Below are positions 18,338 through 24,132 of a stretch of 33,605 nucleotides of DNA, piece after piece; within the stretch, counting starts at the first letter, position 1; every line of letters begins with the position of its first letter. A model generated the notes under the pieces. That model was not told the origin of the DNA, made no database searches, and saw only the letters and a list, made by a program, of their open reading frames with translations. Source of the DNA: an uncultured Pseudomonadota bacterium. Lineage in GTDB: Bacteria > Pseudomonadota > Alphaproteobacteria > RF32 > CAG-239. The stretch covers positions 1 through 33,605 of the forward strand of contig CASDRW010000085.1 of NCBI GenBank assembly GCA_949283275.1. The letters are read 5' to 3'. A program made the position numbers and the translations under genes.

Positions 18338-21300
18338 TTAAGCCACTTTGGCATCATAGCAGATTTTTGCCCCCTCAATATCGCCGTTGGTGCCAGATGA
18401 GCAAGTATTGTTGACTTTAACCGCCAATACTTGCTCGGCAATATAGTCCTTATTTTCGCTCAAGGCTTTGGCCAGCTCTTTATCATCGGTCGAATAGCTA
18501 AGCTCGATCCTGTCGGAGATGTCAAAATCTTTGTCCTTGCGCAGGGTTTGAACCATACGAACAAAATCACGCGCCATACCCTCACGTTTAAGCTCCTCGG
18601 TAACAGATGTGTCCAGCATTACCAAAGCCTTATTATCAGCAAAGGCTTTGGCGGCAACGCCTGACTTCATCTCCAGCCTTACCTCAAACAAATCTGAAGT
18701 TAGCTCATGACCGGAAATCAAGAGTTTGCCACCTTCTTTTAGCTCCCAGTTGCCTTGCTTGTAGGCGGCCATAACAGAGCCCATGTCTTTGCCCAAAGAT
18801 TTGCCCAACAATGGGGTATACAAATAAATCTTTTTGTCGGCATAGCTACTCAAATTGTCGTCAAACTTGACTTCTTTGACATTGAGTTCGTCTTTGATTA
18901 TCTCGCAATAGTCCTTATCAAGCTCTTGACCGACAACAGTTAGCGACCTAAGCGGCAGGCGGTTGCGCAAATTCTTTTCCTCGCGGATAAATTTGGCCGC
19001 CGAACACAAATCTTGCAAGAAATCCATGTCAGATACCAATTTCTCATCAAACTTGATGGCTGCCAAGTTCGGATAATCTACCAAATGCACGGATTCCAAG
19101 CCACTTAGGGTCTTATAGATATACTCGCAGACAAACGGCATTAGAGGTGCGGCAATTTTGCTCAAATTAATCAAAACCGTGTACAAAACATCAAAGGCCA
19201 ACGGCTCGCCCTCCCAAAAACGATCGCGGGTGCGGCGAATATACCAGTTGTTTAGCACTTCAATAAACGAGGAGATGGCATTGCAGGCAATTGCAACATC
19301 ATAGGTTTCAAGCCCTTTTCTTACCACCTCGCTCAAGTTTTTGAGCTTGGAGAGGATATAGTTGTCCATTGCCTCGGTTGAAGAATAGACCTCTTTGGCT
19401 TGATAGCTCTCGGCATTGGCATAAAGAGTGAAGAAATAAAACGCATTCCACAGTGGAATTAGCGCCTCGCGCGAGGCTTTGGCTATCTCTTTGCCCTCTT
19501 TGTCAACCGCCAGGTTGCCGCCTTTTAATACCGGAGATGATACCAAAAACCACCGCAGAGTGTCAGAGCCTATTTTGTCCAAAACCTCGTTCGGGTCAGG
19601 ATAGTTCTTTAGCCTCTTGGAGAGTTTTTGCCCGCCTTCGGCCATCAACAGACCGGTGCAAATACAATTCTTGAACGCCGGCTTGTTGTGCAAAGCAGTT
19701 GACAACACGGTCAAGGTATAAAACCAACCGCGGGTTTGATCCATCGCCTCGACAATGAAATCAGCCGGAAAATGGCTCTCGAACCAAGCCTTGTTTTCAA
19801 ACGGGTAGTGCACCTGCGCATAAGGCATGGACCCACTTTCAAACCAGCAGTCAAACACATCGCCAACTCGGCGCATCATGCTCTTGCCTGTGGGGTCGTC
19901 CGGATTAGGATAGACAACATCATCAATATAGGGTTTATGTAAATCTGAAACCTCAAAACCAGTCTTTTCCTTTATCTCGGCAATGGAGCCAAAAACATCA
20001 ACCCTAGGATACGCCGGATTGTCCGACTTCCAAACCGGAATGGGCGTGCCCCAAAAACGGTTGCGCGAGATTGACCAATCCCTTGCACCCTCAAGCCATT
20101 TGCCAAAACGTCCGTCTTTGATATGCTCAGGAATCCAGTTTATCTCTTGATTGTTTTTGACCATCTCGTCCCTAAAGTCGGTTACTTTGACAAACCACGA
20201 CGACATCGCCTTATAAATCAACGGGGTATCGGTACGCCAACAGAACGGATAAGAGTGGGTATATTGCTCTTTTTTGACCAAAAGGTGATTTTCTTTGAGC
20301 CAAAGCATTATCGGCTCGTTGGTTTCGAAAACTTGTTTGCCCTCGTAATCTGGAACTTCGGCCGTAAACTTGCCGGCCTCGTCCACCGGGCAGACAACCG
20401 GAAAATGCTCGTCATAGGCGCGGCATACATCGAAGTCGTCTTGACCAAAACCCGGGGCAATATGAACCACGCCGGTACCGTCTTCGGTGGAGACAAACTC
20501 GCCTGACAAAACCTTGAAACACCCCTTGTCTTTTAGGTGTTTGAAATAGGGGAACATCGGTTCATAGCTAAGGCCAACCAAATCCTTGCCTTTGAGCGAG
20601 CCAACCTCAACCGCGTGCTCCAATTGTTTTTTATAGCGCGGCAACAAGGCGCGGCCAAGAATATATTTTTGGCCGTCTTCTTCCATGATGACATAGTCAA
20701 TATCCTCGCCAACCGCCAACATCAGGTTTGACGGCAAGGTCCACGGAGTGGTGGTCCAAACCAAAATCTTCATGCCGTTTTCGAGCTTGAACAAAACGGT
20801 GATGGCGTTGTCGGTTTTGTCTTGATAGCCTTGGTTGACCTCAAAGTTGGACAAAGGAGTCTCGGCCGCCCAAGAATAGGGCAAAACACGATAATCCTCA
20901 TAAACCAAACCCTTGTCATAGAGTTGTTTGAAATTGCTGATTACACTTTCCATAAACGGCAAATCCATGGTCTTGTAATCATGGCTGAAATCTACCCAAC
21001 GGCCGATGCGTTTGAACATCTCAACCCAAATGCCGGAGTATTTCAAAACATCGGAGCGGCAGAAATTATTAAACTTTTCGACCCCAAATTGTTCTATCTG
21101 CTTGCGGCCGGATACGCCAAGCTGTTTTTCGGCCGACATTTCGGCAGGCAAACCATGGCAGTCCCAACCCAAGCGGCGCTCAACCTTTTTGCCCATCATA
21201 GTTTGAAAACGGGCAACCACGTCTTTGACATAGGACACCATGATATGCCCATAATGCGGGGTGCCGTTGGCAAACGGAGGACCGTCATAGAACACAAACT

Positions 21301-21424
21301 CGGCGGCACCATCGCGGTTTTTAACCGATTTTTCAAAAGTTTTATCCTCGTCCCAAAATTTGAGGACTTCTTTTTCCAATTCGACAAAGTCAGGCTTTGC
21401 CTTTACATCTGCATAATGTTTCAT
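18338..21424 (-). CDS. ileS: Isoleucine-tRNA ligase, type 2 (eukaryote/archaea-like)
   Basis: FYDGPPFANGTPHYGH, GWDCHGLP, WTTTPWTLPSN, DWSISRNRFWGTPIP, DQTRGWFY, KLSKR. Long C-terminal domain (EGMARDFVRMVQTLRK) and no C-terminal Zn finger. Confidence 0.97.
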   Translation of the reverse strand: MKHYADVKAKPDFVELEKEVLKFWDEDKTFEKSVKNRDGAAEFVFYDGPPFANGTPHYGHIMVSYVKDVVARFQTMMGKKVERRLGWDCHGLPAEMSAEKQLGVSGRKQIEQFGVEKFNNFCRSDVLKYSGIWVEMFKRIGRWVDFSHDYKTMDLPFMESVISNFKQLYDKGLVYEDYRVLPYSWAAETPLSNFEVNQGYQDKTDNAITVLFKLENGMKILVWTTTPWTLPSNLMLAVGEDIDYVIMEEDGQKYILGRALLPRYKKQLEHAVEVGSLKGKDLVGLSYEPMFPYFKHLKDKGCFKVLSGEFVSTEDGTGVVHIAPGFGQDDFDVCRAYDEHFPVVCPVDEAGKFTAEVPDYEGKQVFETNEPIMLWLKENHLLVKKEQYTHSYPFCWRTDTPLIYKAMSSWFVKVTDFRDEMVKNNQEINWIPEHIKDGRFGKWLEGARDWSISRNRFWGTPIPVWKSDNPAYPRVDVFGSIAEIKEKTGFEVSDLHKPYIDDVVYPNPDDPTGKSMMRRVGDVFDCWFESGSMPYAQVHYPFENKAWFESHFPADFIVEAMDQTRGWFYTLTVLSTALHNKPAFKNCICTGLLMAEGGQKLSKRLKNYPDPNEVLDKIGSDTLRWFLVSSPVLKGGNLAVDKEGKEIAKASREALIPLWNAFYFFTLYANAESYQAKEVYSSTEAMDNYILSKLKNLSEVVRKGLETYDVAIACNAISSFIEVLNNWYIRRTRDRFWEGEPLAFDVLYTVLINLSKIAAPLMPFVCEYIYKTLSGLESVHLVDYPNLAAIKFDEKLVSDMDFLQDLCSAAKFIREEKNLRNRLPLRSLTVVGQELDKDYCEIIKDELNVKEVKFDDNLSSYADKKIYLYTPLLGKSLGKDMGSVMAAYKQGNWELKEGGKLLISGHELTSDLFEVRLEMKSGVAAKAFADNKALVMLDTSVTEELKREGMARDFVRMVQTLRKDKDFDISDRIELSYSTDDKELAKALSENKDYIAEQVLAVKVNNTCSSGTNGDIEGAKICYDAKVA

Positions 21425-21493
21425 CTTCTTAAAACACCTTAAATTTTAATTTAAATGATTTGTATTTGAAAAATTTTTGATTGTGATATGTGC

Positions 21494-21526
21494 AAAAAAA
21501 AATAACTAACCCCCTTAGGGGATAAT
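21494..21526 (-). terminator. Putative attenuator terminator in the ileS leader
   Basis: RNA AUUAUCCCC-UAA-GGGGG(U)UAGU followed by UA and U9. The loop is the leader stop codon. Confidence 0.55.
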
Positions 21527-21562
21527 ACGCGAAATAATGGATATGATAAACTGAGCGCACAT
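21515..21562 (-). CDS. Ile-rich leader peptide of ileS (MCAQFIISIISRIIP)
   Basis: ATG TGC GCT CAG TTT ATC ATA TCC ATT ATT TCG CGT ATT ATC CCC TAA: 6 Ile in 15 codons, ending 90 nt upstream of ileS. AAAGG upstream. Confidence 0.8.
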   Translation of the reverse strand: MCAQFIISIISRIIP

Positions 21563-21601
21563 ATTAAACTAAAACCTTTTTGATAACTAACTTAATTATG
21601 G

Positions 21602-21630: not shown

Positions 21631-21887
21631 TTACATTTTGCAGTAAAAAAAACGTGGTTAAAAAAATAACTTTACAAAATTTTCGCATATTTTGTCATTT
21701 TTTTGTTGAAGTTTATAAAAAATTGTTATATAGCAATAAACAATCAATTAAATATTTTTGTGTCTTATTATGTTGGCAGGCTGTCTATTTTCTTGAAATT
21801 TAAGGAAACGACTAACTCAATATGATAGGGCCTTTTTTTTAACACAAGGGAAAGGGTGCCTGGTCTTTTCCTAAAAACAGAAAAATT

Positions 21888-22256
21888 ATGCCTATATTTG
21901 TAATTTTGGCAGCCTTGTCCGGAATTTGGCTGCTGCTTTTGGCGCTGATGATGCTGACAAAAGTGCATCAGTTGTCAAAAGAAAAAAATTTGCTTAAGGT
22001 TCCCAGAAAGGACCTTGTAGCGTTAGTAAAAAAGCACCGCTTTGGTGCCGTGCCCAATACAATATCCGTCATATTGGCGGTGGTAGCTGTCGCTTTGGCA
22101 GGGTTGCTCATTAACGAACAACTGTTATGGCTGGCTATTTTGCTGCCTTTCATTTGCCTGTTTGTTCGCTGGGTGGTTAAATTATTATTCTTGCTGGTAA
22201 TTGCACTGGTAAGGATGGTAGCCAAAATCTATAAAAAAATGGATGGCTACTGGTAG
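21888..22256 (+). CDS. Hypothetical small membrane protein
   Basis: 122 aa with three or more hydrophobic segments, followed by a terminator. Confidence 0.7.
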   Translation: MPIFVILAALSGIWLLLLALMMLTKVHQLSKEKNLLKVPRKDLVALVKKHRFGAVPNTISVILAVVAVALAGLLINEQLLWLAILLPFICLFVRWVVKLLFLLVIALVRMVAKIYKKMDGYW

Positions 22257-22278
22257 TAGTTTCACTAAAAACAAATTT

Positions 22279-22315
22279 ACATCCGCAGTCCTTGATTGGC
22301 TGCGGATGTTTTTTT
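22279..22315 (+). terminator. Intrinsic terminator
   Basis: ACATCCGCAGTC-7 nt-GGCTGCGGATGT followed by a T-run. Confidence 0.85.
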
Positions 22316-22320
22316 AAATT

Positions 22321-22545
22321 TTATTTTATATCTTCCAAGCTAAATTTGAGCTTTTTGCCATAGAACTTCAAAAGGCGCAGGTAGTGGTGAAAGCTCAAGT
22401 TTCCACCTTGCTCCATCAAGGTTATCATGTTCATGGTCAACGGCGTTTGCAAAGCGACATCTTGGAGGCTTAAGCCTTTTTCCTTTCTCAGGGCTATTAG
22501 TTGCGGCGCAAGCTTTTGTCGCATCAGATATTTAAAATTTTGCAT
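22321..22545 (-). CDS. Small XRE/Cro-family helix-turn-helix protein (74 aa)
   Basis: LIALRKEKGLSLQDVA...ITLMEQG HTH_3 pattern. AAGGAG RBS before ATG 22545. Confidence 0.8.
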   Translation of the reverse strand: MQNFKYLMRQKLAPQLIALRKEKGLSLQDVALQTPLTMNMITLMEQGGNLSFHHYLRLLKFYGKKLKFSLEDIK

Positions 22546-22571
22546 TTTTCTTAACTCCTTAATTGTTTGAT

Positions 22572-22737
22572 AAAACAAAACCGCCTTATAAAAACAAGGC
22601 GGGGAGCTGAAAAACTGCTCTAATACAGTCAGGTTTATTCGTCACGCAAAGCATGCTTATTTCACCCACTCCCCATTCAGGAGTTTGTTATTAGAGAGAT
22701 GTTTTTCAGACACCACCAAGGCAACTCGCCTCGGTAA
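22572..22737 (-). ncRNA. Candidate structured leader/antisense RNA (c4-like architecture) ending in a terminator
   Basis: Complementary pairs 22715-22722/22728-22735, 22701-22709/22607-22615, 22689-22696/22618-22625 and 22669-22674/22601-22606. Terminator 22581-22602 followed by UUUUGUUUU. Confidence 0.55.
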
Positions 22738-22742
22738 GGTTG

Positions 22743-22771
22743 AAATTAGAGCAAATTTGCTAATTTGGCAA
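22743..22771 (-). promoter_or_regulatory. Putative sigma70 promoter of the RNA/HTH unit
   Basis: TTGCCA-17 nt-TAATTT, immediately downstream of the eno terminator. Confidence 0.55.
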
Positions 22772-22788
22772 GGGTTTTATTTTTAACA

Positions 22789-22824
22789 ACAAAAGCTCCT
22801 TGAGATAACCTAAGGAGCTTTTGT
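22789..22824 (-). terminator. Intrinsic terminator downstream of eno
   Basis: ACAAAAGCTCCTT-10 nt-AAGGAGCTTTTGT. Confidence 0.85.
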
Positions 22825-22842
22825 TTATTTTAAGACTAAATC

Positions 22843-24132
<1,290 letters not shown>

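Follow-up and report, generated by a model that had tools for sequence, protein, structure and literature searches.

A multicopy cassette of a structured RNA and a small XRE-family gene in small-genome gut Alphaproteobacteria

What is the role of a promoter, a structured RNA, an intrinsic terminator and a gene for a small DNA-binding protein that stand in tandem next to the enolase gene of an uncultured gut bacterium? This question is raised by positions 22321 to 22771 of contig CASDRW010000085.1, which is referred to over its whole length of 33,605 nt as the window. A sequence-only reading of the window described a promoter, a hairpin, two boxes with exact complements farther along, G- and C-rich motifs, a terminator, a Shine-Dalgarno (SD) sequence and an open reading frame (ORF) for an XRE-family helix-turn-helix (HTH) protein, and proposed a kinship with the c4 antisense RNAs of phages. 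All these elements were located as claimed, and the order of promoter, structured RNA, intrinsic terminator and XRE-HTH gene was confirmed and is kept in paralogues. That reading missed the multicopy nature of the cassette, which is not visible from the window alone: the cassette is a self-contained accessory unit of a large multicopy family in small-genome gut Alphaproteobacteria.

The structured RNA of ~165 nt is real, as attested by its folding energy and by covariation across paralogues, relatives and metagenome sequences. The minimum free energy (MFE) of the 171-nt stretch is -62.8 kcal/mol, compared with -40.25 ± 3.78 kcal/mol for 200 shuffles, none of which was as good (z -5.97). Covariation among homologues, which had been put forward as a check, was found in all three sets of sequences. 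In the MAFFT/RNAalifold alignment of 15 paralogues (paired cells uncounted), which is independent of the model, 25 of 41 pairs changed on both sides. The other two alignments were fitted to the model and hence favor it: 57 distinct sequences from the same genome, its relatives and loci in metagenome-assembled genomes (MAGs) had 97.4% of their cells paired, with both-side changes at 28/41 pairs (426 cells), and 66 distinct sequences from metagenome contigs had 95.8% paired, with both-side changes at 33/41 pairs (650 cells). In control alignments for the 57-sequence set, 78.0% of the cells were paired in shuffles and 41-51% in slid registers; none of 500 shuffles attained any observed measure.

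In the MFE fold, the boxes, which had been read as having downstream targets like those of c4, instead pair with their complements to form P1 (9 bp) and P2 (8 bp), two helices stacked on each other. These enclose a three-way junction whose other two arms are P3 (ACUCCU/GGGAGU) and P4, the latter extended by an 8x8 internal loop and P5. Double changes were seen at all 7 modelled pairs of the 5' hairpin P0 (57- and 66-sequence sets), at 7/10 pairs of P1 (57-sequence set) and at 7/8 pairs of P2, with all four pair types represented (57 sequences; 8/8 in the metagenome set). P4 covaries at 4-5 of 7 pairs in the two larger sets, covariation of P5 is visible in the alignment, and the terminator stem, near-invariant within the genus, covaries at 5/5 pairs in metagenome copies. 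Invariant residues occupy unpaired places (GGUGG, GGGGAG, GAWAUAAG, CGAAUAA, GACUG/CAGU and CUCC), and the internal-loop residues of the P4-P5 arm are invariant or nearly so. The RNA has, in this respect, a trait of riboswitches and attenuators, namely, a conserved unpaired core closed by covarying helices. No small ORF within the RNA is conserved in the paralogue alignment because loop indels break every frame.

The promoter is taken as real because its -35 element (CTTGNC), spacing and -10 element (TAAnTT) are kept in all 15 paralogues of the MAFFT alignment, where the sequence farther upstream is unrelated. A consensus promoter scan left it unflagged, given that TAATTT agrees with TATAAT at only 3 of 6 positions. 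The cassette starts ~17 nt past the terminator of eno; this terminator is common to the closest relative (G018), and beyond it homology ends. The features of the locus are listed in the table.

Table. Features of the cassette locus. Coordinates are those of the whole 33,605-nt window; all cassette elements are read on the minus strand.
Feature	Position	Strand	Basis or remark
eno (enolase gene), upstream neighbor	22843-24123	-	ORF list
Intrinsic terminator of eno	22788..22825	-	Terminator scan and ORF list
Sigma-70-type promoter	22743..22771	-	-35 TTGCCA 22771-22766, 17-nt spacer, -10 TAATTT 22748-22743
Structured RNA, ~165 nt	22573..22736	-	Predicted 5' end; covariance-model match 22570-22742, 191.9 bits
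P0, 5' hairpin ACCGAGGC-GAGTT-GCCTTGGT	22715..22735	-	Arms 22735-22728 and 22722-22715
GGUGGUGU, then P1 5' strand CUGAAAAAC	22701..22714	-	Sequence and fold
Box CTGAAAAAC	22709-22701	-	Exact complement GTTTTTCAG at 22615-22607
Box CTCTAATA	22696-22689	-	Exact complement TATTAGAG at 22625-22618
P2 5' strand CUCUAAUA, hypervariable box	22689..22696	-	Fold and covariation
P3 hairpin ACUCCU-GAAUG-GGGAGU	22668..22684	-	Holds near-invariant GGGGAG at 22674-22669
P4 (GGGU/ACCU), conserved internal loop GAAAUAAG / ACGAAUAA, P5	22631..22667	-	
P5 hairpin CAUGC-UUU-GCGUG (DNA CATGC-TTT-GCGTG)	22655-22643	-	
GACUG, P2 3' strand UAUUAGAG, CA, P1 3' strand GUUUUUCAG	22607..22630	-	
CUCCCC (CTCCCC)	22606-22601	-	Overlaps first 2-3 bases of terminator stem
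Intrinsic terminator CCGCCUUGU-UUUU-AUAAGGCGG and run UUUUGUUUU	22572..22606, including CUCCCC	-	Fold and terminator scan; in DNA letters CCGCCTTGT-4-ATAAGGCGG plus TTTTGTTTT, 22602-22572
Shine-Dalgarno AAGGAG	22555..22560	-	11 nt past T-run
74-aa XRE-family HTH ORF	22321..22545	-	ATG 27 nt past T-run
Palindromic terminator between HTH gene and convergent ORF	22279..22309	none	Terminator scan
Convergent 122-aa ORF	21888-22256	+	Hydrophobic, without Pfam match
ileS	18338-21424	-	

A BLAST search of the assembly to which the window belongs (1.44 Mb in 138 contigs) found 18 places, and a longer query showed that the whole unit recurs, from promoter to stop codon. When genomic copies were counted with a covariance model (R1) built from 15 copies, this genome yielded 15 full copies (139-195 bits), 3 partial ones (58-75 bits) and 1 marginal match. 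Homology between the paralogues spans the region from the -35 element to the HTH stop codon, and the flanks and downstream terminators are unrelated (MAFFT). The palindromic terminator beyond the HTH gene differs in every paralogue and so is probably local rather than part of the repeated unit. An intact ORF of 72-76 aa follows a conserved SD in 14/15 copies, in which the order of terminator, ~10-20 nt, SD and start codon is also kept; the fifteenth (C125) is followed by a different protein, a 170-aa HTH_3 protein. Conversely, of the 36 loci identified via the HTH protein, 25 have the RNA immediately upstream in the same orientation, and in relatives the RNA is followed by small HTH ORFs even where protein identity is low.

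Beyond this genome, 27 of the 36 other genus genomes gave R1 matches, and copy numbers ran from 0 to 29 per genome. In the order, 113 of the 151 genomes sampled matched, including 111/149 in the family and 18 of 20 genera; outside the family, matches are weak only. With at most 18 candidates scored per genome, the 151 genomes gave 812 matches in total. The relatives are recorded as MAGs of uncultured Alphaproteobacteria. The core pattern has at least 119 matches in metagenome contigs, many of them labelled gut, and none in 2.9 million viral contigs. Per-genome HTH counts track RNA counts, and the 9 genus genomes without an RNA match are also without an HTH match.

Judged by their divergence, the paralogues are old and under selection. 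At synonymous sites of the HTH gene, the median pS is 0.71, with 47 of 120 paralogue pairs saturated, and the median dN/dS of 0.14 places the HTH gene under purifying selection. Identity between RNA paralogues ranges from 59 to 86%. Each of the 15 copies in the genome has a unique combination of P1 and P2, and copies that share P2 differ in P1. The "hypervariability" of the P2 box is attributable to saturated divergence under which only pairing is constrained.

Several copies depart from the common pattern. Copy C6 (L009, 586-766, minus strand) is a recombinant in which the 3' half equals L105, the 5' boxes come from other paralogues, and P1 and P2 are mismatched; C6 and C70 (L016) have an identical promoter and P0 and differ downstream. 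At C125 (L020, 49-987), an RNA copy devoid of the 5' boxes and terminator sits upstream of the full copy, whose 170-aa HTH_3 protein matches PADLOC models named RmrA; a truncated relative of that ORF lies behind the sole RNA copy (L043) of genome G002. In L031, L033 and L137 (genomes G024, G023 and G031, respectively), a small ORF (MTETQTFYNDIPS...) without a Pfam match replaces the HTH gene after the RNA. An insertion of ~140 nt, with repeated short palindromes (GGGCTTGACCCGAGGATGAC...) inside it, separates the RNA terminator from the HTH gene in L034 (G028). Finally, GC-rich REP-like palindrome arrays (CCAGGCAAGCGCCTGGAGGCA, GCTGCCGAAGCCGGCAGGGGCA) were found 60-250 nt upstream of cassette promoters in G024 and G031 (L112, L117, L119, L121, L127 and L128).

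The placement of the cassette is accessory. Among 30 genus loci downstream of eno, it is present only in this genome and in G024, in the latter in the opposite orientation, and is thus accessory at this site. In other genomes of the genus, the eno-ileS gap is as short as ~215 nt or is filled by other small genes, and the closest genomes share with the locus only eno and its terminator. Contigs from 4 runs in 3 studies hold the cassette at this site; among the DNA contigs compared there, no joint skips the cassette, and the sole joint that removes a sizeable block of the interval deletes the 122-aa ORF and leaves the cassette intact. The neighbors of the 17 loci in this genome are housekeeping genes (eno, alaS, thrS, fba, smpB, ftsK, rplO and others), with no phage, integrase or transposase domains detected nearby by Pfam, which upholds the earlier statement that the cassette lies outside any visible prophage. 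The next downstream gene is convergent in 28 of 31 loci of relatives and, by eye, at all loci of this genome with a visible neighbor; this arrangement fits selection against aiming a strong outward promoter into a gene.

Two other parts of the interval were also compared. The 122-aa ORF varies independently of the cassette: in a contig from run X7, it is replaced by 28 other bases (window positions 21667-22276), and in X4 it has diverged. Upstream of ileS (window positions ~21430-21580), a segment with the palindrome TTATCCCCTAAGGGGATTTA recurs at L051, L057 and L061, in three other genus genomes with very different eno-ileS spacers; this conserved segment, for which the window gave no Rfam match, is a possible leader element of ileS.

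The protein encoded in the window falls below the Pfam cut-offs for HTH_25 (22.4 bits; cut-off 24.6) and HTH_3 (21.9 bits; cut-off 23), with a weak match to HTH_31; paralogues exceed the cut-off, for example, the HTH_3 match at L009 (30.4 bits). Profile searches against PDB retrieved XRE regulators, namely, HTH_3 (E 1e-7), DdrO, HipB, HigA and C.AhdI. In the AlphaFold2 model (pLDDT 92.6), four helices are followed by a C-terminal tail, and Foldseek placed HipB antitoxins first (TM 0.72-0.78) and C-proteins next (C.AhdI and C.Esp1396I, TM 0.67-0.70). As modelled, the protein looks like an XRE repressor resembling HipB or a restriction-modification C-protein. The defense and phage libraries searched, including PADLOC, hold no family for it, and none of the 17 loci adjoins a HipA or HigB toxin gene or restriction-modification genes; only C48 adjoins an N6_N4 methyltransferase gene. 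At that locus (L013, 1958-2869), two tandem cassettes lie between the gene for this CcrM-like N6_N4 DNA methyltransferase and the convergent thrS.

Three conserved pairings are exclusive of parts of the nested fold. In Alt-5', GGNG(U) pairs locally with (A)CNYC, in the window GGUG(U) with (A)CAUC at 22702-22698, such that the P1 5' strand sits in the loop; its 4 bp form in 54/55 sequences, and the hairpin also forms in 62/64 sequences from metagenomes, where compensation takes the form of U-A replaced by A-U and of a GAUG/CAUC variant. The distal closure that the MFE fold uses instead, GG.G:C.CC, was rejected: its partner CUCC never changes, and it is mismatched where the local partner pairs. 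Alt-3' is the ACTG...CAGT hairpin that the sequence-only reading had recognized around a box complement. Its ACUG pairs with CAGU, leaving the P2 3' strand in the loop, with 4 bp in 54/57 sequences; an ACAG/CUGU variant is compensated in 3 sequences at the cost of one P4 base pair, and GCUA/UAGU also occurs. In helix X, the partner of GGGGAG is CUCCCC(G) at 22606-22600, and the helix reaches at least 6 bp in 56/57 sequences; GGAGGAG is found solely with CUCCUCC (6/6) and GAGGGAG solely with CUCCCUC (5/5). Helix X excludes P3 and consumes the first 2-3 nt of the terminator stem, and when X is forced in folding, both Alt hairpins appear. Two states of the RNA are likely, with a putative link to termination. 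Of the competing folds previously proposed, the exclusive pairings, including GGGGAG/CTCCCC, stand, with some covariation, whereas competition with the terminator is weak (~2 bp). P0, which resembles the terminator arms in the window copy, was considered as an anti-antiterminator and rejected because its variants (for example, GAGAU/AUCUC in C71) are compensated inside P0 with the terminator unchanged.

A second structured RNA, of ~235 nt, precedes the same HTH family at C94 (L024:1875-2110, minus strand) and C98 (L025:1650-1885, minus strand), as well as at three MAG loci (L088, L092 and L094). Its outer frame is that of the first, namely, the closing GGAG/CUCC, a P1 built around UUCGAA, a complementary P2 that varies, and CUCUCC with the terminator, whereas its core differs. 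It has its own TTGACT promoter and gave no match in Rfam. Such a combination of common frame and exchangeable core would suit a regulatory leader composed of a sensor and an expression platform.

The reading that we favor, tentatively and at slightly less than an even chance, is that the RNA is a leader or attenuator that sets or switches read-through into the repressor gene, with probable feedback on the promoter. It draws on the strong constraint on the RNA, the leader layout kept among copies, the alternative pairings, the outer frame common to both RNA types and the repressor character of the protein. The constitutive-looking sigma-70 promoter would drive transcription of the ~165-nt RNA, which would end at the strong intrinsic terminator. 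Because there appears to be no space for a conserved promoter dedicated to the HTH gene, this gene would be expressed only through terminator read-through, and the leader would set, and probably switch, the amount of repressor; TATAAG, in the loop of the terminator, occurs in just 5/15 copies. State A would be nested, containing P1, P2, P3 and an unshortened terminator, and the long closing stem formed by P1 and P2 would be free to vary in sequence. In state B, the Alt-5' and Alt-3' loops would display the variable boxes, and X would open P3 and strip 2-3 bp from the base of the terminator. The conserved junction and internal loop would be the likely binding site of a putative factor that shifts the balance between the states, and the HTH protein, a small dimeric XRE repressor, would most likely feed back on the cassette promoter.

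Several observations weigh against an attenuator of this kind. The fold with X forced lies 6-15 kcal/mol above the MFE in 14/15 copies (2.3 kcal/mol in the recombinant C6), and in the window copy, a 7-bp terminator stem survives forced X; with state B this costly and the stem retained, antitermination regulated by X is thermodynamically weak. The covariation of Alt-5', Alt-3' and X, as read from the alignments, amounts to few evolutionary events in mostly invariant sequence. Among 14 cassettes of the genome, similarity in the RNA shows no correlation with similarity in the HTH protein (Mantel r -0.20, a value equaled or exceeded in 4416 of 5000 permutations), and the two halves are shuffled among copies, so that no given RNA is tied to its own protein; HTH-RNA co-evolution was accordingly rejected, none having been detected. 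A search of the promoter alignments for an operator gave only AT-rich near-palindromes and nothing convincing. Moreover, the cassette promoters of G024 and G031 are nearly identical across diverged HTH subfamilies, which argues against each HTH protein recognizing its own operator. Finally, duplication of a riboswitch-like sensor 15-29 times before near-identical small repressors would be unusual.

It is rather unlikely that the RNA is itself the main product, a stable trans-acting or protein-binding molecule with the HTH protein, made by leaky read-through, as its dedicated regulator. Conservation within the cassette is highest in the promoter and RNA, and in G024 and G031 these stand nearly identical before very different ORFs, one of them non-HTH. 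The conserved unpaired motifs (GAWAUAAG / CGAAUAA, GGGGAG and CUCC) resemble binding surfaces, and the strong terminator with its U-run and the decoupled histories of RNA and HTH gene are in keeping with such a role. However, a small regulator ORF without an apparent promoter of its own nearly always lies within ~30 nt of the RNA, and a simple stable RNA has no need of conserved alternative pairings.

An RNA that resembles P4 CI or P1 c4 by function, not homology, is improbable. Once terminated, the RNA (or a 3' fragment processed from it) would use the paralogue-specific P1 and P2 boxes to pair in trans with transcripts being made from the same cassette and would force the terminating fold; 15-29 parallel circuits would be kept apart by their hypervariable boxes. 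The established c4 and P4 CI mechanisms use short boxes that pair on their own transcript. In state B, the conserved local hairpins of the cassette RNA would expose the boxes in their loops or leave them single-stranded alongside, the combination of P1 and P2 is unique in each copy of the genome, and covariation cannot tell intramolecular from intermolecular pairing. Against this, the mature MFE fold locks the boxes in 17 bp of helix, their hypervariability is explained more simply by saturation (pS 0.71) with pairing alone constrained, and there is neither an Rfam C4 match nor a phage context. In addition, a search for a third box copy within 300 nt downstream of the 15 copies gave best matches of only 4-8 of 7-9 bases, and these were scattered. 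Equally improbable is the more elaborate form, a new class of bistable, self-recognizing switch in which the terminated RNA would read paralogue-specific P1/P2 "address" boxes on nascent transcripts and control read-through, with the swappable core, of type 1 or type 2, as the sensor. If it were true, up to ~29 orthogonal RNA-repressor circuits would operate in parallel in a 1.5-Mb genome, a chromosomal and massively parallel counterpart of the phage immunity RNAs.

There is only a slight chance that the cassette is a selfish module, akin to addiction or defense systems, with the architecture of type III toxin-antitoxin (TA) loci, in which the RNA and the HipB-like protein would neutralize each other. 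Its gene order (promoter, RNA, terminator, protein) is that of ToxIN-type loci, and the folds closest to that of its protein are antitoxins (HipB and HigA) and restriction-modification C-proteins. Within a single genus, species carry anywhere from 0 to 29 copies, the paralogues are ancient and their sites not conserved (eno site, 2/30 genus loci), the copies lie in neutral, convergent intergenic spots, and decayed fragments are present. However, the RNA is without tandem repeats (Tandem Repeats Finder gave none for 22300-22860), the protein is not a nuclease and matches no defense family, no toxin gene is nearby, RNA and protein do not co-vary, and orthologous copies common to G024 and G031 point to stable inheritance. 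Finally, a MITE- or REP-like dispersed palindromic repeat without function at the RNA level, or an assembly artifact, is scarcely credible: copies are multiple, intergenic and often next to terminators, REP-like palindromes adjoin cassettes in G024 and G031, and several copies lie at contig ends, but the RNA is no simple palindrome, having a complex multibranch fold with a three-way junction, invariant unpaired loops and covarying helices, it always comes with promoter, terminator and an intact ORF that purifying selection maintains, homology stops at the promoter and stop codon with no terminal inverted repeats visible, and contigs from 4 runs in 3 studies have the cassette at this site.

Whichever reading applies, this large RNA family is absent from Rfam 15 and accounts for a noticeable share of very small genomes of gut Alphaproteobacteria. 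It pairs, unusually, a complex RNA that has conserved alternative folds with the commonest type of small repressor. If the RNA is a switch, the family would be a compact, naturally diversified set of RNA-repressor modules, and a conserved regulatory module offers a way into the regulation of bacteria not yet grown.

How does the cassette compare with known systems? Like the c4 RNAs of P1/P7 (RF01695, c4-a1b1 and c4-2) and P4 CI, its RNA is a short structured leader of the operon that it precedes, with two short boxes complementary to others on the same transcript and a plausible terminator-based outcome; c4 RNA is about half its size. The proposed relationship to c4, c4-a1b1 or P4 CI nevertheless did not hold up. 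Rfam 15 at the gathering score gave no match in the window or at 8 variant loci, including none to C4, c4-2 or c4-a1b1, and at E≤10, the region 22200-22900 gave chance-level matches only, with no C4-type family among them. The cassette further differs in its chromosomal housekeeping context without ant, icd or other phage genes, in its 15-29 copies per genome and its absence from the viral contigs searched for the core pattern, and in having as boxes the strands of the closing helices, with no target copy downstream; because that third copy is lacking, membership fails, and assignment to the Rfam C4 family was rejected.

With type III TA systems (ToxIN, CptIN and TenpIN), the cassette shares the order of promoter, RNA, intrinsic terminator and protein gene, as well as accessory, multicopy behavior; in those systems, the terminator sets the ratio of RNA to protein. 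It differs in that its RNA is one complex fold rather than a series of tandem repeats and its protein an XRE HTH rather than a ToxN-type endoribonuclease: Pfam gives HTH families only, with no ToxN/AbiQ-type endoribonuclease. The resemblance to the leaders of riboswitches and protein-dependent attenuators lies in covarying helices that close a conserved core, in a terminator placed right before the ORF and in alternative pairings; moreover, as outlined for leader-derived small RNAs such as GraL of greA, a terminated leader may persist as a small RNA. In contrast to such leaders, the cassette RNA matches no known aptamer class, precedes a small repressor gene rather than a metabolic or transport gene, is amplified up to ~29-fold per 1.5-Mb genome and has a terminator overlap of only 2-3 nt. 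HipB, HigA and C proteins are, like the cassette protein, XRE-type HTH proteins of 70-80 aa with four helices and a C-terminal tail, but in the cassette, no HipA or HigB toxin gene or restriction-modification pair adjoins.

Literature searches turned up no description of this cassette or RNA element. A parallel is a survey of human microbiomes which reports that, of the domains encoded immediately after its candidate RNAs, HTH_XRE is the most frequent, with 15 motifs (Fremin and Bhatt 2021, PMC8040213). The survey's account of these motifs mentions neither a function nor multicopy behavior, and overlap with the cassette RNA is possible. The survey suggests that structured leaders of XRE genes are recurrent in gut bacteria, and the cassette gives a concrete case of HTH_XRE genes behind candidate RNAs.

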